From an uncultured Acidimicrobiales bacterium (GTDB lineage Bacteria; Actinomycetota; Acidimicrobiia; Acidimicrobiales; SZUA-35): 64,000 nucleotides of DNA. The notes beneath the pieces are model-generated. The model saw only the letters and a list, made by a program, of their open reading frames with translations. It was not told where the DNA came from and did no database searches. The stretch is taken from the NCBI GenBank assembly GCA_937922805.1, contig CALAJV010000013.1:8879-72878 (forward strand). The letters are read 5' to 3'. The position numbers and the translations under genes are program-made. Below, one piece after another: positions 27,314 to 39,058 of this stretch. Numbering within the stretch: the stretch's first letter is position 1; each line of letters starts with the position of its first letter.

Positions 27314-27475
27314 CAGGGCGATCCAGCGGTTTTGCCGTCGCCTGTAATAGTTCGACAAGGCTTCAATTAGCAAGATCTGACTAGCGACTAGAAAACGGCT
27401 TTGCTAGTGTCTCATGCCAAGGGAAGTGTGGCCCGAACGATTCTGCTCGTTCGTAGTCCTTAGGTGGGGAATTCA

Positions 27476-30472
27476 ATGACAAGTTCTAGAGACAATTTTT
27501 CGTTTCAGTTCACGGATGAGCGGGAACATCGAAGCTTGGATCTTTCCGAACAAACCGATCGCCATTTGTGTGCCCCTCTTGGGCAAGCTCTCTCCGATGC
27601 GTCGGCAAATCGATACGACCGGCTAAGAAACGGCGCCCGTCAAAACAAATGGCACGCGCAACGGGCGGGGCGAAAGTTAATCATCGCGACCGCGTTCGCA
27701 TCTGGAGTTATCGTTCCAAGTCTGGCCTCACTCGTTTCGGCCCAACCGTTAGCGAACTTCGTCGGGGATGACGAACCTGTCGACGATGGAAGTATCGAAG
27801 CCGGATTTCACGATGTCATCACCGGAAATACATCATCCAAGTTGAACAGCAACCCGCTGGCGGTCGCGGAGCAAAGCAACACCGAAGTTGTCCCGACCGC
27901 GCTAGTTCGAGCTGACGCTATTTCGGTTGATAACCCTGGAACTCAAGAGTCCTGGCAATTGAGAAACGGGCCCGACTCCAACGGCAACGGAGATGTGATC
28001 ACCGGGAAACCACCCTCGCTGCTAGCCCCCAAGTACCAGTCGGGTCCGAATTCGAATCGTCGGACGCAGCAAAACTGGTCAGCCGCCATTCGGCCTGAAG
28101 CACTCGCCAGGCCAACCGCCACTCCGCAACCTCCTACCCCTTTAACTCAACCTGCGCTTGGTCCCGTAGTATCGGCAACCTCCCAGCAAGTACCGCAACC
28201 GAAACGCAGTTACCAGGGTCCCCTTCCGGAATTCACGTTCGACAAGGCTCCTACGCTAGGCATCCCGACACAAGACCAACCGCAAACCGAAACCCCGAGT
28301 CCACCAAATTTAACTGGCATGGATACCACACCGCCGGCGCCGCCAACTATCGACATCGCAGCTCCAGACCAACCATCAACACTCGACCAATTGCCGGGAA
28401 CAAGCGGCGGTCCGCCGTCGCAGCTCGATCCCTCCGCTCCGGTGACTCCACCAGCTGCGCCCATGGACGTACCGGCTCCGCCAACCCCGAATATGAGCCC
28501 AGTTCCTCCGGATATTCCGGCGACGGAACTTCCATCAAGCTTCGGCCGGGACTTCGATAAAGAGATCGGTGATATTGTCGAAAAAGCGGAGACTCGGGCT
28601 CCCAACGTGACCGAGATTGAGACCACACGGGGCCAAATCGAGTTTGATGGACTCGCCGACGACAACAAGCGAGATGACAACGGCCGAGGTCGAGGCAAGC
28701 CCGGTAAACCGGGTGGGAAAACGATTGACGTTGGCGTAACGATCGGGATGAACAGCGACGAAGCTGTTTCTTCTTCGGTAGATGCCGACGGCAACCTAAC
28801 AGTAACCGTTGAAGCAAAAGACTCAAGCTTCGTCAAGGGTGCAGCGGAGGCGGCTAAGTTTGGCGGCAGTTACACCGACATTACATCTGTCGAAGGTAAC
28901 TCAGTAACATTCGGACTCCCTCCGGCGGCCCAAGCAGAAATTCGAGCCGGGTCAGCCTTGCCCGACAAAGCCAATCTCGATTCAATTACCGTTCCAGGAA
29001 CGTCGGTAAAAGAATCCACGATCACCAGCGGAACTGGCCACGAAGTATCCGGCAGTTTCCGTGCCGAGTACGGTCGCGGCACTGTTACCACCTCGGCAAC
29101 CGAGCAATCAGTCGAGCGAACTAATGCGGAAACGGTGACCGTAACCGACGCCGAATCAGAGACCGTCTCATCAACGAGCGGTCTTGGAATCGGGATCTTC
29201 GGTTTCGGGGGCAACGACTACAACAAGAGCGAGAAGACAACCGCTACCGGCACCGACACACCCTATGGAGTCGGAAGTGATAACCAGAATCAGGCGGCGG
29301 TACAGGCCTACGCCGATCATCTCGCCGGCCGACCAGCGGCGGTTCCGGAAGTGTCCAACCAGTTCTCCGAAGTCACGAACGCTGAGATCTACGGATATGA
29401 CGTCTACGCATCTGGTAATTTCGGCAAGGATCCAAAAGGGGCAGTCAAGGCCACCGACGCCACCGAACACACCCTGTCTATGGAGAGCTACCGAACTGAT
29501 GCGTTGAGCATCGGCAGTGGCCAAGTAAGCCATACCGATACTCGAACGTTCGCGCATAACCCAATTGCAATCGACGGTCATTCAGAGTTGTCTTTGCCAA
29601 GCGTCTCGATGACCGTGCAAGAACAAACCACTTATGATGGCGGCGGGTCTGTGAGCGATCGCGTGACACTCTCCACTGGCGATGTCACGATCGACATGTC
29701 GGGCGAACAGCTCCGGGAGAGCATCGATCACCTCCGAGATACCGGCATAGACCCCGGCCCTCTTGCTGATTCAATTTCGAAGTCGAACAGCATCGCGTGG
29801 GGTGCCCGCAATGTTGACAATAGCTGGGGGGGCTATCTTTTCGGTGAGGAGCATGGCACCACAGCTCCGGCCACAAGAGGCAACATCGCTGAGTTAACGG
29901 GCCACCTTGCGGACCTGGGGCCAACTGGAACCTACGATCAGGTTCCAGCTACCGATACACCAGACGAGGTGACCTTCGCTTCTGGCCCAACCGGTGGACA
30001 AGCTGACGCCGATGCCCAAGGGCAGTCAGACCATGGGTACGACGAAGTCGACACATCGACCGGCGATTCCAATCTTGACAATCCGAATGGCAACTCGAAC
30101 GAGGCCGCAACCACCGACGACGGATACGCCGGAAACACCGACACAAACACCGACGACGGATACACCAACGCCGCCGCAACCTCCGACGACGGATACGACG
30201 GATACACCAACGCCGCCGCGACCTCCGACGACGGATACACCAACGACGGATACGACGAAAACACCGGCGCAACCACCGACGACGGATACACCAACGACGG
30301 ATACGACGGATACACCGATGCCGCCGCAACCACCGACGACGGATACGACGGATATACCGACGCCGCCGGAACCTCCGACGACGGATACACCAACGACGGA
30401 TACGACGAAAACACCGACGCCGCCGCAACCACCGACGACGGATACGGCGACGCTGGTTTCGGTTGGACTTAG
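27476..30472 (+). CDS. Orphan secreted or anchored protein: Pro-rich stalk, Ser/Thr/Gly-rich beta region, acidic DGY-repeat tail
   Basis: About 1000-aa ORF with hydrophobic segment IIATAFASGVIVPSLASLV. Start is ATG 27476 or GTG 27464. Stop overlaps the stop of the convergent gene. Confidence 0.75.
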   Translation: MTSSRDNFSFQFTDEREHRSLDLSEQTDRHLCAPLGQALSDASANRYDRLRNGARQNKWHAQRAGRKLIIATAFASGVIVPSLASLVSAQPLANFVGDDEPVDDGSIEAGFHDVITGNTSSKLNSNPLAVAEQSNTEVVPTALVRADAISVDNPGTQESWQLRNGPDSNGNGDVITGKPPSLLAPKYQSGPNSNRRTQQNWSAAIRPEALARPTATPQPPTPLTQPALGPVVSATSQQVPQPKRSYQGPLPEFTFDKAPTLGIPTQDQPQTETPSPPNLTGMDTTPPAPPTIDIAAPDQPSTLDQLPGTSGGPPSQLDPSAPVTPPAAPMDVPAPPTPNMSPVPPDIPATELPSSFGRDFDKEIGDIVEKAETRAPNVTEIETTRGQIEFDGLADDNKRDDNGRGRGKPGKPGGKTIDVGVTIGMNSDEAVSSSVDADGNLTVTVEAKDSSFVKGAAEAAKFGGSYTDITSVEGNSVTFGLPPAAQAEIRAGSALPDKANLDSITVPGTSVKESTITSGTGHEVSGSFRAEYGRGTVTTSATEQSVERTNAETVTVTDAESETVSSTSGLGIGIFGFGGNDYNKSEKTTATGTDTPYGVGSDNQNQAAVQAYADHLAGRPAAVPEVSNQFSEVTNAEIYGYDVYASGNFGKDPKGAVKATDATEHTLSMESYRTDALSIGSGQVSHTDTRTFAHNPIAIDGHSELSLPSVSMTVQEQTTYDGGGSVSDRVTLSTGDVTIDMSGEQLRESIDHLRDTGIDPGPLADSISKSNSIAWGARNVDNSWGGYLFGEEHGTTAPATRGNIAELTGHLADLGPTGTYDQVPATDTPDEVTFASGPTGGQADADAQGQSDHGYDEVDTSTGDSNLDNPNGNSNEAATTDDGYAGNTDTNTDDGYTNAAATSDDGYDGYTNAAATSDDGYTNDGYDENTGATTDDGYTNDGYDGYTDAAATTDDGYDGYTDAAGTSDDGYTNDGYDENTDAAATTDDGYGDAGFGWT
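30103..30447 (+). repeat. Intragenic mosaic tandem repeat encoding 14 DGY motifs
   Basis: Recurring GACGGATA(C/T) cores within GCCGCAACC(A/T)CCGACGACGGATAC-type units; protein reads (A)AT(T/S)DDGY(TN)DGY. Confidence 0.9.
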
Positions 30473-33243
30473 CCGAGTCCTGGGCTCGGGTCGACCTGGT
30501 CAAGGTCTGGCAGCAGCGAACCTAGTGTCGACCGGGCATAGGCCAGAGCTTCTCTTTCAGCAGTACTCGAGCGATGGCCCAGCGACCCCAATGCTGATTC
30601 AACCGTCACAGTGTCCGGACTAGCGGAGGCAGCAAGGTCAGCGATGGCAACGTCAACTGCTTGTTGTTGATCAGGGCTTGGCGGCAACGTCTCATTCGGC
30701 TTTTGAAGCGGGACCATAACTCGACGAGCGTGTTCGTACTCACCTAGCTCGTAGAGAACGAGGAACGCTTCCCGCACTCCTTGTCGGCTCTGAATTCGAT
30801 TGGCTTGCTGCTGGCAGTGGCCCAGCGCATCAGCACACGTCTGCGCCGATCGACGGAGCTCGCCTGCCGAACGGTATGACCTAGAGAGGTTCAACAAAGC
30901 TTGGCCAGTGACCCATTGGTTGGATACCGATCGTGCGATTTCTAATGCCGATACTAGAAGAGCAGAAGCCTCAGCGGGGCTCGCCAGCCGACGAGCATCA
31001 GCCAAGGCTGTCAAAGACCAAGCAACCGCTGAGGGGTTAGCGACTCGCTCGGCCAGCTGCAGTCCGTGTCGAGCAAGGCCTGCAGCCTCATCATAGAACC
31101 CTTGGGTTGTTAGCCCCATCGATGCGATTACGTGGAGGTTCGTTCGGTAAAAGGGCTGGTCATGTTCATCACACCATTTGAGCCCCCGGTTCAACTCGCT
31201 GTTCGCCCGCTCGTAGTCACCAGCCATACCGTGACCGGCCATTAAAACAACTCGCGAGGCAATTGGCCCGGTACCTATGGCCACTTCATCGGCCTCTACC
31301 GCTAGTTGCATAGCAGTAGCTACGTCCCCCTGGTTGAAAGATCGAAACGCCGCCATGCCAGAGAGTTCCGATTGATTTTCGCAACTGAGATCGTCACTCG
31401 TCAGAGATTGAGACTGTTCCAGTAACGTTTGGACCCACGAATACACTTCGTAGTTCATTCTCAGAAATCCGAACATGTGCATCGACGAGACCACCGATGC
31501 GGCTCGGTTGTAGTTTCCTTGTTGAATGTCGTACAGTACCGCAGCTCGAATATTGCCGACCTCAGAACCTAGCTGGTCGACTGCCGCCATTTCATCACTT
31601 GATTGGACCCTCGGCCCCAGGTCTAACGCAAGTTCGGCGTAGGTTTTGGCTTGCCGCTTTCGAAGGTCGTCTTTCTGCTGTCTGTCCAGCAGTTCAGAAA
31701 TCGGTAGTCGTAGAGGTTGAAGCATCCGATAACGGCTTGCCCCAACGTTGCCGCTCAATTGAACCAGCCCATTAGTTACCAAATTCTCTAACGAGCCCAG
31801 GAGCTGAGATCGAGGCTGTTGGGCTACTCGGGCTAGCTCGGCTAGAGCTACGTCGGGTTGGGCATCAGCCACCAGAGCACCTATTCGCTGGCTTTCATCA
31901 TCGAGACTGTCGATAGACCAACGGAGAGCATTTTGGATCGTGGGTGATTCGCCCTCGAGCACCGAAAGATCGTCTTCTAACAGATCGAGCAAATCGCCGG
32001 GCTTCAACACCGACATTCGGGTAGCCGCCAGCTCAATCGCTAGTGGCATTCCACCCAATCGTTCGCAAATTTCGGTAACCACTGGTCGAGCTGGGGCAGG
32101 GTCAAATCCGGGGTGAGCGATTGTCGCAGTGGCCGTAAACAATCGCTCGCTGTCACCTTCAGCAGTTTCGTCGTTGTTACCAATCCCAAGTGGGCCGAGA
32201 GGAAACACCACTTCACCGAGGACCCCGAGGGGCAGTCGACTGGTTGAAATTACCGTTGGGCCACCGGCTTGCACCGCAGCTTCTGCGACCGAACTAGCCC
32301 CATCGGCTACATGCTCGCAGTTATCTAAAACGATTAGGGCGTCACTTCCGGCCATGGCCTCGGTGATACTGCGTTCGCAGGTTGAGGCAATTTTCGGATC
32401 AACACCGAGAGCACTGGCAACGGCATTGGCAACGTGGACCGACTGATTCACCGGCACGAGGTCAACAAAACAAACACCATCGGTGAACCGGTGACCATGG
32501 TTTTCAATAAACGCCTTGGCCAGACAGGTTTTGCCGATGCCGCCAGGCCCGGTGATCGTAATCACCTGACCAGGTTTGAACTGTTCAAGCACAGCTAGTT
32601 CGTCGAATCGACCAATTAGTTGGCTTGGCCCTGGCGCCGGGGCTTCAAAGCGCCTCTTGGTCTTCAATGGAGGAAAAACTGGACCGGCTACCACAGCCTC
32701 GTCACCTAGCTCATGGTGATAGTCAAGCTGCCACAGGGTTTGAGGTGCGAAATCTCGGAGCGCGTAGGACCCAAGGTTGCGCCAGAAAAACCGATCAGCG
32801 CCTGGGCCGAGCATGTCTCTAGTTTTGGTCGACATGATGATCTGTCCACCATGAGCAACGCTATGGAGGCGCCCACTGTAGTTGAGCGGCGTTCCACCGA
32901 TGTCACCATCGGACAACTGGAAGACCGTCCCGCTATGCAGACCAATTCTGACCCGAAGTTTTCCGGTTCCTTCTGGATCGCTGGCGATTCCGACCTGGGC
33001 CGCAATCGCGGCTTCAGCAGCTTGGGTCGGATCGTGGAAGTAGATGGCTCGACCGTCGCCTTCTCGGGAGAACACGATTCCGTTTCGGTCGGTACCGGCC
33101 CGTTCAACTATTCCATTTATCGTTGGGATGCACCGTGTCATCTCCAAGCTCCGAGTTAACCAAGCTTCAGAGCTGCGCTCGATGTCGGCGAACAGGAAGG
33201 TCAGGTTTTCAAGCTGACCGGGTTCCTTTTCTGGCGAAGACAC
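30469..33243 (-). CDS. Class III adenylate/guanylate cyclase - STAND (NB-ARC-like) NTPase - TPR protein
   Basis: FLFADIERSS, EGDG, RVRIGLHSG, LNYSGRL..AHGGQ cyclase motifs; Walker A GPGGIGKT, Walker B LIVLDNCEH, GMPLAIELAA; helical TPR-like C-terminus with no LuxR HTH visible. Confidence 0.9.
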   Translation of the reverse strand: MSSPEKEPGQLENLTFLFADIERSSEAWLTRSLEMTRCIPTINGIVERAGTDRNGIVFSREGDGRAIYFHDPTQAAEAAIAAQVGIASDPEGTGKLRVRIGLHSGTVFQLSDGDIGGTPLNYSGRLHSVAHGGQIIMSTKTRDMLGPGADRFFWRNLGSYALRDFAPQTLWQLDYHHELGDEAVVAGPVFPPLKTKRRFEAPAPGPSQLIGRFDELAVLEQFKPGQVITITGPGGIGKTCLAKAFIENHGHRFTDGVCFVDLVPVNQSVHVANAVASALGVDPKIASTCERSITEAMAGSDALIVLDNCEHVADGASSVAEAAVQAGGPTVISTSRLPLGVLGEVVFPLGPLGIGNNDETAEGDSERLFTATATIAHPGFDPAPARPVVTEICERLGGMPLAIELAATRMSVLKPGDLLDLLEDDLSVLEGESPTIQNALRWSIDSLDDESQRIGALVADAQPDVALAELARVAQQPRSQLLGSLENLVTNGLVQLSGNVGASRYRMLQPLRLPISELLDRQQKDDLRKRQAKTYAELALDLGPRVQSSDEMAAVDQLGSEVGNIRAAVLYDIQQGNYNRAASVVSSMHMFGFLRMNYEVYSWVQTLLEQSQSLTSDDLSCENQSELSGMAAFRSFNQGDVATAMQLAVEADEVAIGTGPIASRVVLMAGHGMAGDYERANSELNRGLKWCDEHDQPFYRTNLHVIASMGLTTQGFYDEAAGLARHGLQLAERVANPSAVAWSLTALADARRLASPAEASALLVSALEIARSVSNQWVTGQALLNLSRSYRSAGELRRSAQTCADALGHCQQQANRIQSRQGVREAFLVLYELGEYEHARRVMVPLQKPNETLPPSPDQQQAVDVAIADLAASASPDTVTVESALGSLGHRSSTAEREALAYARSTLGSLLPDLDQVDPSPGLG

Positions 33244-33245
33244 TG

Positions 33246-34799
33246 CTAGTTGGGAACAGAATACGGAAGAGGATCAGGATCCGGCTCGTTCGGCATCGGC
33301 ACAATGTCGGCTGAGCTCCAATGGGTGTCCAACGACTTTGGGCTGTGGATACCCCAGCTTCGACAAAGCGAATCTGGGAGTTGTACGCCCCCACGATCTC
33401 GATTTTCGAAGACGTTCAACGGGCTGGTATCCGTGAACATCTGCAAAATCTCTCGTCCCATCATCGCCGATAATTCGCCACCGGAAAATCGGGTTGGGCG
33501 ACCGATCGCGACCTTAGAAACTCGACGAGATATCAGCAGACGATTAGCCCAATAGTGACCCCATCCCCCGCTACGGACACCGAGCATTGTTCTGACCTCG
33601 TCACCAGCCAAATATCGAATCAACATTGCAGGCAAGGGCTTCATTGATCGCGAAAGCGGTTTCTGTACCTCTTGGAGCAAGGCGTTGGCCAGTATTTTCC
33701 CTTCGTGACTTCCTTCTTGGTGTCTTCGTCTGATCACCGCCATGAGCTCGGTTGAGACCTTGGGGGTGAAATGAGTGCCGAAAATGTCGTGTTCCGCCGG
33801 CCGCCGACAATGAGACTCGCCTTCGGAAAGTGCCGACTCAACTCCAACACCGAGATGGCGACCCACAACGTCCCACACGTGGAACCAAGCGTCGATGTCG
33901 TCATCGTTGTAAGGAACGCCTAGGCGTCCAAGGCCTTCAAAAACCGAGACAGTGAACGTGAAAAGGGTCCCGAGTTGATCTTCTTGATTGATGGGTTGGC
34001 CCAATGTTGGGCGTCCGTGTCGCTCGAAACTCTGTTCTCGCTCTTTCCAGCGGGTTGACAACGTTGGATCAGATTCGGATTCGAACATTTTGCGAACGAT
34101 GCCGTGAAACAACCGGACCCGGCGGGCTAGACGCGCCCCGGCCTGACCAGCGTGCAGCGTCGTAAGATGTTGGCGATCTTGGTCGGCGATAGCAGGATCT
34201 TCGCTCAACACGGCGATTAGCATTCGAGCTGTCTCTCGAATGCGTCTTGCCGGATGCGAAACTAGTTCGCTGGTCAAGTACAACACCTGAGCCCCTCGAG
34301 CGCAGGCATAGGCTTCAGGTAGCGATTGATGCAACAGCACTGCCGAGACGTGCAAACCGTACGTCTCGAAAAACCGTTGGGCATGCCTTACTTTTTGAAC
34401 ATCGATGATGGCGTCAAGATCGGCGTCGGGGCCATAGATGAAGTTATAAACATCATCAGGAAGCGTTGCCCCATTGGGCACGGTTCCATCTCCCGGCGAA
34501 CGAGGTTGGGGCGCAGCCAACGCTTTGAACCAGTCAACGTGCTCTGGAATTTGTAACGTCGAGGTTGAATTACCAAGCGACTCGATCGATTTTTGTTCAA
34601 CTGAAAGATCGGTGTTGGCTATCGGGCGAGGGTCGCCGGGGACGACCTCGCCATTCGAAACTGAGTGTTCGGAAGTAGAAGCGTTGGCACTTGCGACATG
34701 GCCAATAAGGCTATCGATCAGCTCTTCGGCTCCGAAGTCGCCGAAGGCTCGTAGATTCTCAAGTTGGGCTGCAACCCTCACTCCGGTTAACGCGTCCAT
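33246..34799 (-). CDS. Lcp/MpaB (DUF2236) heme-dependent oxygenase-like protein
   Basis: AQRFFETYG, SLPEAYA, RRIRETA, RVRLFHGIVR (candidate heme His), GQPINQEDQLGT, WDVVGRHLGV. Start ATG 34799 follows AGGAG and overlaps the upstream stop. Confidence 0.85.
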   Translation of the reverse strand: MDALTGVRVAAQLENLRAFGDFGAEELIDSLIGHVASANASTSEHSVSNGEVVPGDPRPIANTDLSVEQKSIESLGNSTSTLQIPEHVDWFKALAAPQPRSPGDGTVPNGATLPDDVYNFIYGPDADLDAIIDVQKVRHAQRFFETYGLHVSAVLLHQSLPEAYACARGAQVLYLTSELVSHPARRIRETARMLIAVLSEDPAIADQDRQHLTTLHAGQAGARLARRVRLFHGIVRKMFESESDPTLSTRWKEREQSFERHGRPTLGQPINQEDQLGTLFTFTVSVFEGLGRLGVPYNDDDIDAWFHVWDVVGRHLGVGVESALSEGESHCRRPAEHDIFGTHFTPKVSTELMAVIRRRHQEGSHEGKILANALLQEVQKPLSRSMKPLPAMLIRYLAGDEVRTMLGVRSGGWGHYWANRLLISRRVSKVAIGRPTRFSGGELSAMMGREILQMFTDTSPLNVFENRDRGGVQLPDSLCRSWGIHSPKSLDTHWSSADIVPMPNEPDPDPLPYSVPN

Positions 34800-36661
34800 G
34801 TTGATACTCCTGGGATGCCGTCGGTTGGGTCTTGATGGGCTCGAACGAGCACTTCTTCTTGCAAGGTGAACGGCTCTTTCCAAACACCACCCGATTGTTG
34901 ACGAGACCGAAGCAGGTTTATCAACCAATTCATTCGATCGTCGAAGACGCCCCAATTGTGAGAACGAGTACCCGTCCCGTATCCAAACGAATGGTCGAAT
35001 CGTAGGAGTAGATTATTGGCCCAGCCATCGCATATTGGGTCAAGAGCCGGCGGGAAGAACGAGGTTGAGCCTGGCGGATCTGGTAGATCCCGGCCTAGCC
35101 GAATTACTTCCTCGCCTACTCGGGCTACTAGTACCTGATCGGTTAGCACCCGACCCCAAACGTCTCCGAACGACCGCTCGAATCGTTCTGATGCGGCCCG
35201 GTTTATTCGCCGTCGCCACCGTCCGGCACCCCGATTTTCACTGGCTTCGATACCGATCTGCTGATCGAAGTAGTCGGCGGCAATTTCTTCGACAGAGTAA
35301 TCAAGGACTCGTTGAACCTTTATCTGAACATATGATTCGATAAGAACGTTGCCCCTAAAGATAAGTTCAGAGCGGGCCTTGTCCATCCCCGCCTTCGTCG
35401 CTTGACGAGCTAACAGATAGCTAACAAGACCGTGGGCGAGGTCAGAGTAACGCTCGTCTCGATCGGTCTTGGCCAGAGCGGGCGTGAACGGCGGTTCATT
35501 GGGGTCAGTAGGAGGCAACGGCAGCGGATTCGCTTTTACCTCAGCGGCCAAGGCCGGTTCAATTTTGGCGTAGAGATCTAGCAGCGCTTTATGATCACCC
35601 AATTTGGGTTCTCCGCCAGCGTCAATACTGGTTAGCAGACGCATAGCGGGTTCAAAGATCTCGGCTTCAAGAGAAGCAGTTCTGGCCAGCAAGCCCTCAA
35701 CTGAAACCGACAACTCTTTGAAAACAACCCTCTGTGCAGCGGCAAGTAGGTTCGAGAGTCGCTGCTTGTTCGTTTGTCTAACGTCGATAGCAAGCCGGTT
35801 GAAAACGCCACGGACTGCGTTGGTCGTTGATTGATCGAACCTCCGGGGAGCGAACCGATTTCGGACGTTGCGGCCGATTGTGAGCGAAGCCCACGTACCG
35901 AAGGCACAGAAGTTGGCATCGGGCCACTCGTTGTCTTCGGTCTGGGCCAACAGTTTTTCGCCAGCGGCAGCTAACCCCTGAGCATCTAGTGGGCCGCCAA
36001 GGTTGTAGGTATATCCGAGAAGCACTCGGGACAAATCTCGGAACCCGAGCGTCACAAGGTGGTTTTGAACACCGTCGGCAATCGACAATTTCTCCAATTT
36101 CATGTCAGCGAAACTGGCCACCGTCCGCTGCGGTTCGTCACCTCGCTGTTCCAGACCACCAAAGCGGGGACGAATGAATAGCTGAGCGTGGCCGGCCAAA
36201 GCTGACAGGTTCTCAATTTCGCTCGGCGTTAACGTCGACGTTCTCGCAATTGAGAGCCTGTGCTCAGCGGTGAAGACCTGCGGTTCTTTCGTTTGACCGG
36301 TGAGCTCTGCCGACGTGGTCGAAACAAAACCTTCAGTCGAAGCAGCATTGTCGGCCGTAAGGACCATCGAACGAGTGAATTGTCGAGATTCGTTCGGTCC
36401 TAGCCCGATTGGCCCCTCGGGCCAGTCGGGTTCGTGATTGTAGGTACCGACCAGGGAGTCAGTTAAAACCAAACCCTCGAGCGGTTCTGTCCGGTAGTTC
36501 GTGATTGTTGTTGTGTAGTTGACGACAGTTCCAGCTTCGCCGATTTCAGGGTCAGACTGGGTTTCAACCCGAATCGGGTCGTCGGCTCCAGAGCCGGGCT
36601 CAATGTCTGAATCGGCAACCTCTGAAAATTTGGTCGGACCCGTCTCTGATTGGGTTGCCAT
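34787..36661 (-). CDS. Hypothetical protein: N-terminal Ig-like (DUF11/DUF7507-like) domain plus helical domain of unknown function
   Basis: GTVVNYTTTITN..PLEGLVLTDSL; ANFCAFGTWASLTIG; LIFRGNVLI..Q..VQ; NWGVFDDRMNWLINLLRSRQ. Start ATG 36661 follows GAGGAGGGAAGG. Confidence 0.8.
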   Translation of the reverse strand: MATQSETGPTKFSEVADSDIEPGSGADDPIRVETQSDPEIGEAGTVVNYTTTITNYRTEPLEGLVLTDSLVGTYNHEPDWPEGPIGLGPNESRQFTRSMVLTADNAASTEGFVSTTSAELTGQTKEPQVFTAEHRLSIARTSTLTPSEIENLSALAGHAQLFIRPRFGGLEQRGDEPQRTVASFADMKLEKLSIADGVQNHLVTLGFRDLSRVLLGYTYNLGGPLDAQGLAAAGEKLLAQTEDNEWPDANFCAFGTWASLTIGRNVRNRFAPRRFDQSTTNAVRGVFNRLAIDVRQTNKQRLSNLLAAAQRVVFKELSVSVEGLLARTASLEAEIFEPAMRLLTSIDAGGEPKLGDHKALLDLYAKIEPALAAEVKANPLPLPPTDPNEPPFTPALAKTDRDERYSDLAHGLVSYLLARQATKAGMDKARSELIFRGNVLIESYVQIKVQRVLDYSVEEIAADYFDQQIGIEASENRGAGRWRRRINRAASERFERSFGDVWGRVLTDQVLVARVGEEVIRLGRDLPDPPGSTSFFPPALDPICDGWANNLLLRFDHSFGYGTGTRSHNWGVFDDRMNWLINLLRSRQQSGGVWKEPFTLQEEVLVRAHQDPTDGIPGVSTWTR

Positions 36662-36804
36662 ACACCTTCCCTCCTCAGTGCGGTCGCCCAACGAACTCAC
36701 ATGGTCCGTCAACTGACAGTACCAAAATTGAATGGCACCAGCTAGGCCCGGGGAAGGTCGGAAAGCGGGATCACTCCCGCAGCCATAGTTCGAATCAAAA
36801 CTAC

Positions 36805-36942
36805 CGGTGGCCCCGGACGACGAATCAGGTTGGGGAAGAAGCGTCGTATCAGGGCCACCGAGATCTTGAGAGCTGGCTTTGTCGGTGGCCCCGGACGACG
36901 AATCAGGTTGGGGAAGAAGCGTCGTATCGGGGCCACCGAGAT
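36805..36942 (-). repeat. Two 60-nt direct repeats (59/60 identical, 18-nt spacer), each a hairpin with a C/U-rich loop; candidate structured ncRNA or leader
   Basis: Copies at 36805-36864 and 36883-36942. Minus-strand core: CGGTGGCCCY-GAT-ACGACG-[CTTCTTCCCCAACCTGATT]-CGTCGT-CC-GGGGCCACCG. Confidence 0.85.
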
Positions 36943-37095
36943 TTTGGTTCAGCGCGAGCCATAATGCTCGAACGCCAGCGTTCGTTTGTGTAAGGTCCCA
37001 CCCTCCATGCTTACCGTTCGGAAGCTACCTTTCGAACCGTCTGTTGCTATCCACACCCGCTAGCCGGTAGTTCCGTTCCATGGTTTCCAAAAAAG

Positions 37096-37701
37096 TTAGA
37101 GAAAGTCGATAATTTGTCGCAGGTCGCTTAAACCAATCTCGGCAGTAGCCAGATCAAGCTCATACTGCACGACCTGCTTTTCGAACTCGACGACCAAGTC
37201 TCGGTCTCCGGCCCGCTGTGCGACTCCGGCCGCTCGACGATAAACGACAATCGCCTCCAGTGCTTGGTCTCGGTCGTGAGACAAGATTTCTGTACTCCGG
37301 TAAGCCCGGTCGGTCGATGTTTGTTTTGGCGCCGAGTCGTACCAAACCTGAATTGCTTCGTCCTGGATCTCGTGTTTCGAGATCATGGCCGAAATCAGTT
37401 GTTGGATCTCCGCCAATGCGGTCACCGCTTGTTGATGGCTCGGTAGCGTTCGAAGTTTCGATTCTTGTATTGCTACCAGGCGACGACCGCCGGCGGTTCC
37501 GTCGTTGCCGGGTTGTGACTCATCGGGAACTGACCGGCTGTCTTGGCAGATTGGCGTTACTGAAGCGATCTTCTCCGGCTGTCTCGGCGGCTCATAGCTA
37601 TGGCCAAAGAGCCCCGACTGGCCACACCGATCCATCGTCATGTGACAACCGCCACAATTGCGTTTTCGCTGCACATTCTTACCATGTGATGCACTCCCCA
37701 A
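37096..37701 (-). CDS. Hypothetical helical protein (weak PspA-like segment); start uncertain
   Basis: C-terminal ~125 aa look like an amphipathic coiled coil (AQRAGDRDLVVEFEKQ); the N-terminal part looks non-coding. Confidence 0.55.
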   Translation of the reverse strand: MGSASHGKNVQRKRNCGGCHMTMDRCGQSGLFGHSYEPPRQPEKIASVTPICQDSRSVPDESQPGNDGTAGGRRLVAIQESKLRTLPSHQQAVTALAEIQQLISAMISKHEIQDEAIQVWYDSAPKQTSTDRAYRSTEILSHDRDQALEAIVVYRRAAGVAQRAGDRDLVVEFEKQVVQYELDLATAEIGLSDLRQIIDFL

Positions 37702-37861: not shown

Positions 37862-39058
37862 CTAGTCGATACTCACTTGCGAGAATTCGCCGTCGATATA
37901 CCGCTCTAAGAACGAGTCAGCCTTGAGCATCAAATCACACTCATTCAGATTTCTGGTTAGGTGAGGAAGGCAATATTCATTGCCATCTTCATTAAGCAAA
38001 GGGACTGTCACCCCATCACGAATAATCGAACTATCGTTCGGGTCTTCGAATTGAGCAATATCGTCGCTAGCTATAAAGATGAACGACGGCCCCTTTGACG
38101 GCTCTAAATCGCAGGTGTTAAAGCTGTTGGTTTGGATGCAATTCTCGTTACCGGCGCTATCAAACAGCGGCACGTGGATGCCGCCTTGAGTGGCAGAATC
38201 GTTGTTAGGGATTGCAACCGATTGGGGCCCTTCGAACTCTCCTTGTGGCGAGGTTTGAGAAATAGCGTCACCGGTGATCGGGTCGACTTCTGATAGCCGA
38301 CCTAAGCCACGCACCTGATCGTAACGTTCCCCATCAGGACACTCGAAGATCCCGTAACTGACTTCACCACAATCCAATACGTCGACTCCGTCGATCCAAC
38401 AACCTTCGTTGGTCAGTGGGTTCACTCCCCACGCTGGTAGTTCGCCACCTTCGTCGGTGCATTGATCGGTTGCTCGATTGGCGACGTCTAGGTCGACCGC
38501 CAAGGAACTTGGCGTAGAATCTTCGTTCGACTTTTGCGGTGACAGTGGCATCTCTTTAGCAACGCTGCTCGACAGCTCTGGCAGTTCGCATCCCTCGTTA
38601 AACGCAGGATTGAAGCCGCGTCGATCACCGTCGCCATCATCGCGGCAGAGTTCTGCTGGGTTGGTTCCTGGGATTAGACAACCATGGTTTGTTTCAAGGT
38701 TGACTCCCCAACCGTCGCCATCTCCTTCATCAACACAAAGTGTCGTGGGTGTTTCGGCATCGGATGGTGCCATCGCTCCAAGGGTGGCAAGGCCGCTAAT
38801 ACCGGCGGCGGCAGCAGCCGTAATCGCCACTTTGCGACCTCGCCCGGTTCGGGCTGGTGGGCAGGTGGTGTTCCCCTCTGCGACGTAACGGGCAAAGTGG
38901 AGCTCTGCATCGCTAGCTAAGTCAGCTTCAATTACAACAGCGTTCGAAGGGGCGAATTCGTCATCGGCGTCGCCGTGCTGCGGTGCTGAGTTCTCGGCGA
39001 GGTCCTTGCGAGCCCGCTCTTGACCCGACACGAGATCGGTCCAGGTCTGTGAATACAT
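37862..39058 (-). CDS. Orphan anchored or secreted protein with Cys-bracketed DGDGWG-type repeats
   Basis: AGGAG RBS; TM VAITAAAAAGISGLATLGA; three C-x-D..G.N....GC repeats; two VPL...GNE.C...N.CDL repeats. Confidence 0.75.
   Translation of the reverse strand: MYSQTWTDLVSGQERARKDLAENSAPQHGDADDEFAPSNAVVIEADLASDAELHFARYVAEGNTTCPPARTGRGRKVAITAAAAAGISGLATLGAMAPSDAETPTTLCVDEGDGDGWGVNLETNHGCLIPGTNPAELCRDDGDGDRRGFNPAFNEGCELPELSSSVAKEMPLSPQKSNEDSTPSSLAVDLDVANRATDQCTDEGGELPAWGVNPLTNEGCWIDGVDVLDCGEVSYGIFECPDGERYDQVRGLGRLSEVDPITGDAISQTSPQGEFEGPQSVAIPNNDSATQGGIHVPLFDSAGNENCIQTNSFNTCDLEPSKGPSFIFIASDDIAQFEDPNDSSIIRDGVTVPLLNEDGNEYCLPHLTRNLNECDLMLKADSFLERYIDGEFSQVSID

Follow-up and report, generated by a model that had tools for sequence, protein, structure and literature searches.

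A conserved module of a helical protein, an MpaB/Lcp-type protein and a cyclase-STAND protein in an Acidimicrobiales genome, with a possible role for the first two in signal input

A 64,000-nt stretch of Acidimicrobiales DNA (hereafter the window) carries three minus-strand open reading frames (ORFs) that fill positions 30469-36712 and encode an all-helical protein (gene 1), a member of the MpaB/Lcp family (gene 2) and a protein that joins a cyclase domain to a STAND NTPase (gene 3). These genes appear to form a conserved three-part module, predicted to be cytoplasmic, in which the helical and MpaB proteins would together provide the input to the STAND switch, a reading to which we give slightly less than an even chance. 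In the proposed mechanism, a constant core, consisting of the helical protein and an MpaB/Lcp-type b-haem protein with a globin fold, would be coupled to an output protein that varies with lineage. The haem protein and its helical partner may sense O2, NO or redox state directly or, alternatively, may use O2 to turn a hydrophobic substrate into a ligand. The signal would then reach the C-terminal repeat region of the STAND protein, either as a ligand or by direct contact, and would release STAND oligomerisation dependent on nucleoside triphosphate (NTP), which would pair the cyclase domains as active dimers and lead to the production of a cyclic nucleotide. We infer this direction, from the pair to the STAND protein, as well as any physical contact, the nature of the signal (for which a lipid or isoprenoid had been put forward in the initial annotation) and the nucleotide produced.

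The tight packing of the three genes (Table 1), which was recognised in the initial annotation along with strong ribosome-binding sites on the first two, is borne out base by base. The likely ATG of gene 1 sits behind GGAGGGAAGG, and the position of this start is supported by a protein database entry that is exactly the 624-aa form. The gene 1 TAA stop (34789-34787) and the gene 2 ATG (34799-34797) define a 13-nt overlap, with a GGAG 7 nt upstream of the gene 2 start. Gene 2 ends in a TAG stop at 33248-33246, followed by 'ca' and then by the gene 3 GTG at 33243, a 2-nt gap; no obvious Shine-Dalgarno sequence was seen when this junction was read base by base. No transmembrane segment or signal peptide was found in any of the three module proteins by a simple hydropathy check and inspection of the N-termini. 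The genome to which the window belongs (4.5 Mb, 39 contigs) contains a single helical gene, a single MpaB of this type and, besides gene 3, five STAND paralogues.

Linkage of the genes elsewhere was assessed in a scan that used one genome per species, with a sub-alignment of the helical family (A2) as the query and neighbours scored with local profiles; it examined 600 candidate stretches, recognised 554 relatives among them and retained 80 loci. These represent Acidimicrobiia, Pseudonocardiaceae, Actinoallomurus, Myxococcota, Chloroflexota, Acidobacteriota, Saprospiraceae and other groups. An MpaB homologue directly adjoins or is fused to the helical gene in 22 of the 80 loci, all of them, going by record titles, in Acidimicrobiia or other Actinomycetota, and these comprise 17 convergent arrangements with overlapping 3' ends, two co-directional arrangements and three fusions with MpaB at the N-terminus and the helical domain at the C-terminus (L022, L027 and L053). 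The convergent overlaps measure 7 to ~60 nt, most commonly 25 nt (e.g. L021, L029, L031, L052, L055, L056 and L074). A STAND protein of ~950-1200 aa, detected with the same profile, lies beside MpaB in 16 of the 22 loci, with Guanylate_cyc and AAA_16 detected by Pfam in 15, and in several loci it overlaps the MpaB start by 4 nt in an ATGA-type coupling. As for the remaining six, the contig end cuts three (L026, L038 and L061), a PAS-GGDEF protein is found in L060, and no such neighbour is found in L049 or L059. This neighbourhood analysis supports the original view of the three genes as a conserved unit, and the recurrence of the linkage runs counter to the possibility, raised at the outset, that the STAND gene might be unlinked in other genomes.

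Searches of JGI metagenomes gave no close relatives with a single-protein query and three with an alignment query. One JGI contig (L095) carries the helical, MpaB and STAND genes on one strand in the window order, with identities of 37%, 43% and 34% (the last over 922 aa), and another (L096) carries the helical gene and then MpaB before the contig ends. The idea that these genes are chance neighbours was rejected on the basis of conservation, shuffled gene order and fusions, and the conclusion that the pair is functionally coupled to a signalling protein appears robust on this comparative evidence.

Fusions in both orders in other genomes point to interdependence of the helical and MpaB proteins. 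Along with the three MpaB-helical fusions, helical-MpaB fusions, with MpaB at the C-terminus, are found in five genus mates of the window organism and in P0030, P0043, P0051, P0147 and P0152, and L033 contains a single 1371-aa ORF with a cyclase-AAA_16-MpaB layout. The helical domain is also fused to signalling domains, in the form of helical-PAS-GGDEF (P0085), TPR-...-helical (P0089) and Pkinase-AAA_16-...-helical (P0117) proteins.

Across lineages, the pair is constant and the output is variable. In the genus of the window, the MpaB subfamily is present in 7 of the 24 genomes searched, with a fused (5) or adjoining (2) helical domain, and a SARP-type STAND protein (~1000 aa, Trans_reg_C and BTAD) lies beside the pair in all seven. 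Pfam detects AAA_16 or AAA_22 in six of these SARP-STANDs, and the NTPase of the seventh (L101) is seen only by the STAND profile and BLASTP. Five of the seven share 26-29% identity over 640-707 aa with the NTPase and putative repeat part of gene 3, which suggests that a cyclase replaced the SARP head on a related STAND chassis; BLASTP of gene 3 gave no match to the other two, nor to the cyclase-STANDs of the other Acidimicrobiia group. The variable STAND effectors that had been anticipated are seen here as cyclase and SARP heads in different genomes. In the same-order genome G130, the helical and MpaB genes lie beside a PAS-GGDEF-EAL gene that has a 4-nt overlap with MpaB. Outside the Actinomycetota, the neighbours of the helical gene include Pkinase(-cyclase)-AAA_16 proteins in L020 and L062 and a DZR-cyclase-AAA_16-TPR protein in L032.

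A unit found joined to a wide range of output domains is usually a sensor, and the C-terminal position of a STAND protein is usually that of the sensor. The pair is favoured as the input because it is combined with many outputs, because MpaB (L033) or the helical domain (P0117) sits at the C-terminal, sensor-side end of a STAND protein, and because the fold of Lcp resembles that of globins and its haem ligand is retained. It is also possible, although the balance is against it, that helical proteins and Lcp/MpaB globins constitute a new class of input module, which would pass a gas, redox or lipid-derived signal to STAND proteins and cyclic di-GMP (c-di-GMP) enzymes with interchangeable outputs. 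These outputs would be the synthesis of cyclic nucleotide monophosphates (cNMPs), transcription activation by SARPs, c-di-GMP turnover and Ser/Thr phosphorylation.

Stand-alone haem sensors beside signalling enzymes are exemplified by H-NOX proteins with histidine kinases or GGDEF-EAL proteins, and by globin-GGDEF proteins. By analogy with H-NOX and globin-coupled sensors, the module would place a haem protein beside, or fused to, interchangeable outputs (cyclase, GGDEF/EAL, kinase, DNA-binding), but it differs from them in its Lcp/MpaB fold, in an apparently obligatory second partner with no fold match, and in a STAND transducer in place of a two-component kinase. MalT, a STAND regulator that responds to a small inducer and to the partners MalK, MalY and Aes, is a precedent for the gating of a STAND protein by accessory proteins or enzyme-derived ligands, although its partners are unrelated and its output is transcription only. 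Gene 3 appears to have the cyclase-NTPase-repeat layout of actinobacterial cyclase-STANDs such as the Mycobacterium tuberculosis Rv0386 type (class III cyclase, NB-ARC, TPR and LuxR), but lacks a C-terminal helix-turn-helix domain. We know of no partner pair for Rv0386-type cyclase-STANDs or AfsR-type regulators, and literature searches brought none to light; to our knowledge, the activators of the large actinobacterial STAND regulators (cyclase-NB-ARC-TPR proteins and AfsR-like SARPs) are mostly unknown; a conserved, sometimes fused pair is a concrete candidate for their input. AfsR-type regulators have a SARP-NOD-TPR architecture, as outlined in PMC10936776 and PMC11301090. A full-text literature search, with supplements outside its scope, found no paper linking DUF2236/MpaB/Lcp proteins with STAND, SARP or cyclase proteins, in agreement with the earlier statement that no description of the three-gene arrangement was known. 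The module would represent a STAND/second-messenger module of known type whose input components are new, among them a new domain family. If the proposed role is correct, the DUF2236/Lcp/MpaB family gains a signalling role beyond its catabolic and biosynthetic oxygenase roles, and a physiological input is identified for actinobacterial cyclase-STAND and AfsR-like regulators.

Gene 2 is a clear MpaB/Lcp family member, as first assigned, with a match to Pfam MPAB_Lcp_cat (PF09995, DUF2236) at 53.7 bits (cutoff 23) over residues 152-415. When 18 module-linked homologues were built into a profile (A3), it matched Lcp K30 (5o1l) over ~290 residues with E 5.6e-34, and in the resulting alignment H233 corresponds to His198, R187 to Arg164, T191 to Thr168, R230 to Arg195 and R237 to Arg202; H233, R187 and T191, of which the last two match conserved residues of the DUF2236 signature, are invariant in all 18 homologues. 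As described in PMC5522427, His198 of Lcp is the proximal haem ligand, Glu148 the catalytic base in the substrate channel and Lys167 the distal ligand, and the protein folds as a 3/3 globin similar in some ways to globin-coupled sensors. The equivalent of the proximal ligand is kept in gene 2, which is predicted to bind haem. Gene 2 thus resembles LcpK30 (5O1L/5O1M) and other MpaB/DUF2236 proteins in family and in all five of these residues, but differs from LcpK30 in its predicted cytoplasmic location, with no twin-arginine (TAT) or other signal peptide, and in belonging to a type that is always paired with or fused to the helical protein, beside signalling proteins. The vicinity of gene 2 showed no genes for rubber or isoprenoid catabolism.

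Pfam detects three families in gene 3: Guanylate_cyc (PF00211) at residues 10-163 (24.3 bits, cutoff 21.9), NB-ARC at residues 224-308 (24.3 bits, cutoff 23.5) and AAA_22 (30.8 bits, cutoff 27). Class III cyclases are characterised by two metal-binding Asp residues and by a transition-state Asn and Arg. An alignment of gene 3 to Ma1120, the closest solved cyclase (E 6e-8), and to 10 homologues shows that these catalytic residues are kept, with the metal Asp residues at D18 (FADIE) and D62 (EGDG) and the other two at N121 and R125 (LNYSGR). Before GDG, Ser/Arg stand in for the usual Lys of the purine-specifying Lys/Asp pair that distinguishes adenylate from guanylate cyclases, which gives no reading of the product nucleotide. 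The NTPase contains a Walker A motif (GPGGIGKT) and a Walker B motif (LIVLDN), and the C-terminus is a ~550-residue helical region that is TPR-like by homology; the L095 STAND protein matches TPR_12 at 29.6 bits, just below the cutoff of 30.1.

In the gene 1 protein, Pfam finds DUF7507 (Ig-like) at residues 35-124 and nothing for residues 125-624, which include a ~430-residue all-helical domain at about residues 190-610. An exhaustive HMMER search of 1.84 billion cluster representatives (clusters at 50% identity) yielded 401 representatives at E<=0.001, a number that falls to 122 at E<=1e-10 and to 11 at E<=1e-30; among the 401, a few match the Ig domain alone (P0115 and P0137) or are false positives (P0074). 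A word-based protein search found just two relatives of the gene 1 protein, and a similar search for longer proteins gave only three, which is weak evidence on the frequency of fusions. Members of the helical family occur in Actinomycetota, Myxococcota, Chloroflexota, Acidobacteriota and Bacteroidota, are typically 370-510 aa long, and are annotated as 'hypothetical protein' in their source records. An alignment of 68 sequences (A1) contains the sharp motifs D..LRN..IT..Y, NANW.FATWAS.T.G..IR, EQ..LQ, LRLGRD.P and DW...DRMN.I.NLFRSRQQ, and the near-invariant Arg-rich positions of the family are R199, R267, R576 and R585.

No Pfam family covers the helical domain in the window protein or in 30 relatives scanned (20 with no match, one with a sub-threshold match, eight with matches to fused domains only and one false positive), no NCBIfam match was found, and a PDB sequence profile search gave nothing better than E 0.14. 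AlphaFold2 models of the window protein (predicted TM-score, pTM, 0.72, with residues 190-610 well predicted) and of the core member P0032 (predicted local distance difference test score 86, pTM 0.86) are both all-alpha. With these two models, Foldseek gave nothing at E<=0.001 (best E 0.29 and 0.23) and VIA-align nothing at Z>=8 (best Z 5.5 and 6.7, both fragments). Weak fold matches to prenyl/terpene synthases, prenyltransferases and PolF-type diiron oxidases (E 0.25-1.8, TM-score <=0.17) are at noise level and were not used; nothing was drawn from one terpene-synthase match at Z 4.9 or from terpene-cyclase look-alikes in the ESM Atlas (0.79-0.81), also at noise level. A relationship to MpaB, with the helical protein as a diverged MpaB or globin paralogue, was rejected (hhalign probability 0.15). 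The family is widespread and unannotated (~400 clusters at 50% identity), and merits a Pfam entry and a structure.

Several observations weigh against an input role for the pair. The linkage is limited to Actinomycetota, with 58 of the 80 loci having no MpaB, and many loci are from related metagenome-assembled genomes (MAGs), so that these counts do not represent independent events. The L033 triple fusion comes from one MAG and may be due to a 1-nt assembly error at the ATGA overlap. No Pfam TPR family is detected in gene 3 at E<=0.01, and the TPR part of the cyclase-STAND-TPR protein named in the initial annotation, unlike the cyclase and STAND parts that Pfam supports, is drawn from homologues only. 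In gene 2, G170 occupies the position of Lcp Glu148, and E190, a Glu that is invariant in the clade, occupies that of Lys167; with both replaced, Lcp-type chemistry is not assured, and none of the features of the Lcp-type rubber-oxygenase subgroup (Glu148, Lys167 and secretion) is found. At three positions that are R199 (91%), Y207 (93%) and E445 (98%) among 91 family members, the window helical protein instead carries Q, F and V. Since these residues are replaced in the window copy while L095 and L096, its nearest same-order relatives, keep all three, its ligand-binding or catalytic function may have been lost, or may have been re-purposed. P0002 and P0003 (63-67% identical to the window helical protein) also have F207 and V445, and the DUF7507 domain, which is also present in P0002, was acquired in the lineage with the altered residues at 199, 207 and 445. 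The notion that two enzymes make a signal is weakened here by the Glu148 to Gly change and by the three lost helical residues.

The reverse direction of flow, which we regard as rather unlikely, would make the pair a regulated enzyme, or an enzyme and a scaffold, with the signalling protein sensing something else through its repeat region. Control would then be exerted through transcription (SARP), cNMP (cyclase), c-di-GMP (GGDEF/EAL) or phosphorylation (kinase), and a single target would need four unrelated types of second messenger or regulator. A regulator-then-output order, which also speaks against an input role, is seen in P0106 (two cNMP-binding domains and then the helical domain) and P0087 (FHA and then the helical domain), but Pfam detects no cNMP-binding, PilZ or FHA domain in the window helical and MpaB proteins, and the MpaB and helical domains at the C-termini of STAND proteins (L033 and P0117) fit a sensor better. 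R199, R267, R576 and R585 would suit an anionic ligand such as a nucleotide. SARPs are usually cluster-situated activators of neighbouring genes, a further point in favour of reverse flow and against the pair as input. The promoter region between the divergent MpaB and helical genes of the genus mate G015, adjoining the SARP-STAND, contains four ~16-nt direct repeats in tandem (TAGTGGnGGAATT-like; L103:8737-8879), a candidate operator that reverse flow could use; these repeats are absent from the equivalent region of L104, and no SARP-type heptamer repeats at 11-nt spacing were found upstream of the pair in the genus mates.

A quick maximum-likelihood tree of 91 helical domains, with supports from the Shimodaira-Hasegawa-like approximate likelihood ratio test (SH-aLRT), groups the window protein with L095 and L096 (SH-aLRT 100), inside a 28-row Actinomycetota clade (SH-aLRT 95) that contains both GGDEF-linked modules and every cyclase-labelled row but one (18 of 19), the exception being L032 (Corallococcus). 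Each set of fusions, the three MpaB-helical ones and the five of the genus mates, has a clade of its own, and the SARP-linked helical copies of the genus mates are placed elsewhere (SH-aLRT 96), on long branches. A single-protein helical query gave no match in the 24 genus mates. The window module is probably not the vertical counterpart of the modules of the genus mates, as would be expected of an accessory locus acquired laterally, although the long branches make this placement tentative.

Two tandem 64-nt hairpin units precede the operon, as originally noted, and begin 150 nt past the stop of the upstream ORF and end 144 nt before the gene 1 ATG. Folded on the minus strand, both are two-tier structures, at -37.4 kcal/mol (z -7.0) for the unit at 36883-36946 and -34.3 kcal/mol (z -4.2) for that at 36805-36868; none of 200 shuffles folds as well as either, and the whole 171-nt stretch has a z of -8.25. 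The only in-stem difference between the copies is a C-G to U-G change that preserves pairing. No second site was found in the 4.5-Mb genome, no Rfam match was found at E<=1, and Tandem Repeats Finder reported nothing at the hairpins because the array has under two full periods. The initial annotation counted the hairpins as a component of the module, which is not supported by the upstream regions of the homologous operons: no inverted repeat precedes the operon in L095, and the one in L096 is not better than shuffles (z -1.2). The hairpins are lineage-specific and lie outside the conserved module. That they form a cis-regulatory RNA (a riboswitch or attenuator) of the operon is quite unlikely; the duplicated, very stable structures with their preserved pairing lie close before gene 1 on its coding strand, but they match nothing in Rfam, are not conserved before L095 and L096, and follow closely on the upstream ORF, and the second hairpin is followed by GUAGUUUUGAUU. 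Equally, they may terminate or insulate transcription arriving from upstream, or act as stem-loops that stabilise mRNA.

The window DNA is found in five sequencing runs from two studies, four of the runs being marine metagenomes of one study. In Logan unitigs from two marine metagenome runs, the depth is 60 and 123 for the repeat core, 41 and 89 for the junction piece, and 17 and 19-26 for the flanks, so that the hairpin core and inter-copy junction stand at 2.4-5.5x the flank depth, although unitig depths are not copy numbers and unitigs break at the repeat. This hints at a true array of more than two copies that is collapsed in the assembly and varies between samples.

An anti-phage or conflict system, in which the STAND protein would recognise an invader, the cyclase would signal in a Pycsar- or CBASS-like manner and the pair would be a toxic effector, is very improbable. 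In its favour, STAND NTPases with N-terminal effectors are common in defence, the module is accessory (as judged from the genus mates and the differing tree position), the cNMP-binding and helical layout of P0106 resembles a Pycsar-style effector, and a 404-aa EAD7 (effector-associated domain) protein lies beside the helical gene in a Chloroflexota MAG (L018:9283-10497, minus strand); against it, PADLOC-DB 2.0 gave only noise-level partial matches for the STAND protein (E 0.0016-0.0064) and none for the other four proteins, leaving the defence role first offered as an alternative with nothing above noise, the SARP DNA-binding and GGDEF-EAL outputs are regulatory rather than defence-like, and no mobile-element genes were found in Pfam scans of the neighbouring proteins.

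Table 1. Features of the module and its upstream and downstream regions in the window
Feature	Position	Strand	Comment
Gene 1 (helical protein)	34787-36661	-	ORF 34787-36712, likely ATG start at 36661
Gene 2 (MpaB/Lcp-type protein)	33246-34799	-	ORF 33246-34955, likely ATG at 34799
Gene 3 (cyclase-STAND protein)	30469-33243	-	924 aa, GTG start
Tandem 64-nt hairpin units	36883-36946 and 36805-36868	-	Direct copies, 78-nt spacing, 97% identical
Terminator-like stem-loop and T run	30418-30440	-	~30 nt past the gene 3 stop, inside the 3' end of the convergent gene

The flanking genes had been described as orphans, and no Pfam family was found in the ORFs at 27464-30472, 37096-37701 or 37862-39058. 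The last two were considered as parts of the module and rejected, having no homologues in any related locus. The first, on the plus strand, encodes a convergent 1002-aa protein with a proline-rich middle and a C-terminus made of a long low-complexity D/G/Y/T-rich repeat (DDGYTN-type units), and its stop is overlapped by the end of gene 3 (30469) by 4 nt. The terminator-like stem-loop was called by a consensus scan alone, which gives 13 such sites in the region against 9.1 expected and makes it weak evidence.

Other neighbours of the helical gene vary with lineage. In Chloroflexota, it directly follows an ORF of ~493 aa, which in L016 encodes a Proton_antipo_M (NuoN/Mrp-type) membrane subunit; an ORF of similar size is found at this place in L015, L018 and L068, and among these loci only that of L016 was scanned. 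In L040, a GAF-sigma54 activator lies convergent downstream of the helical gene, and similar-sized, unscanned ORFs are found there in related Myxococcaceae loci. Finally, two tandem helical paralogues lie side by side in L035 (Myxococcus sp.) and in L045 (from a record titled Comamonas sp.).

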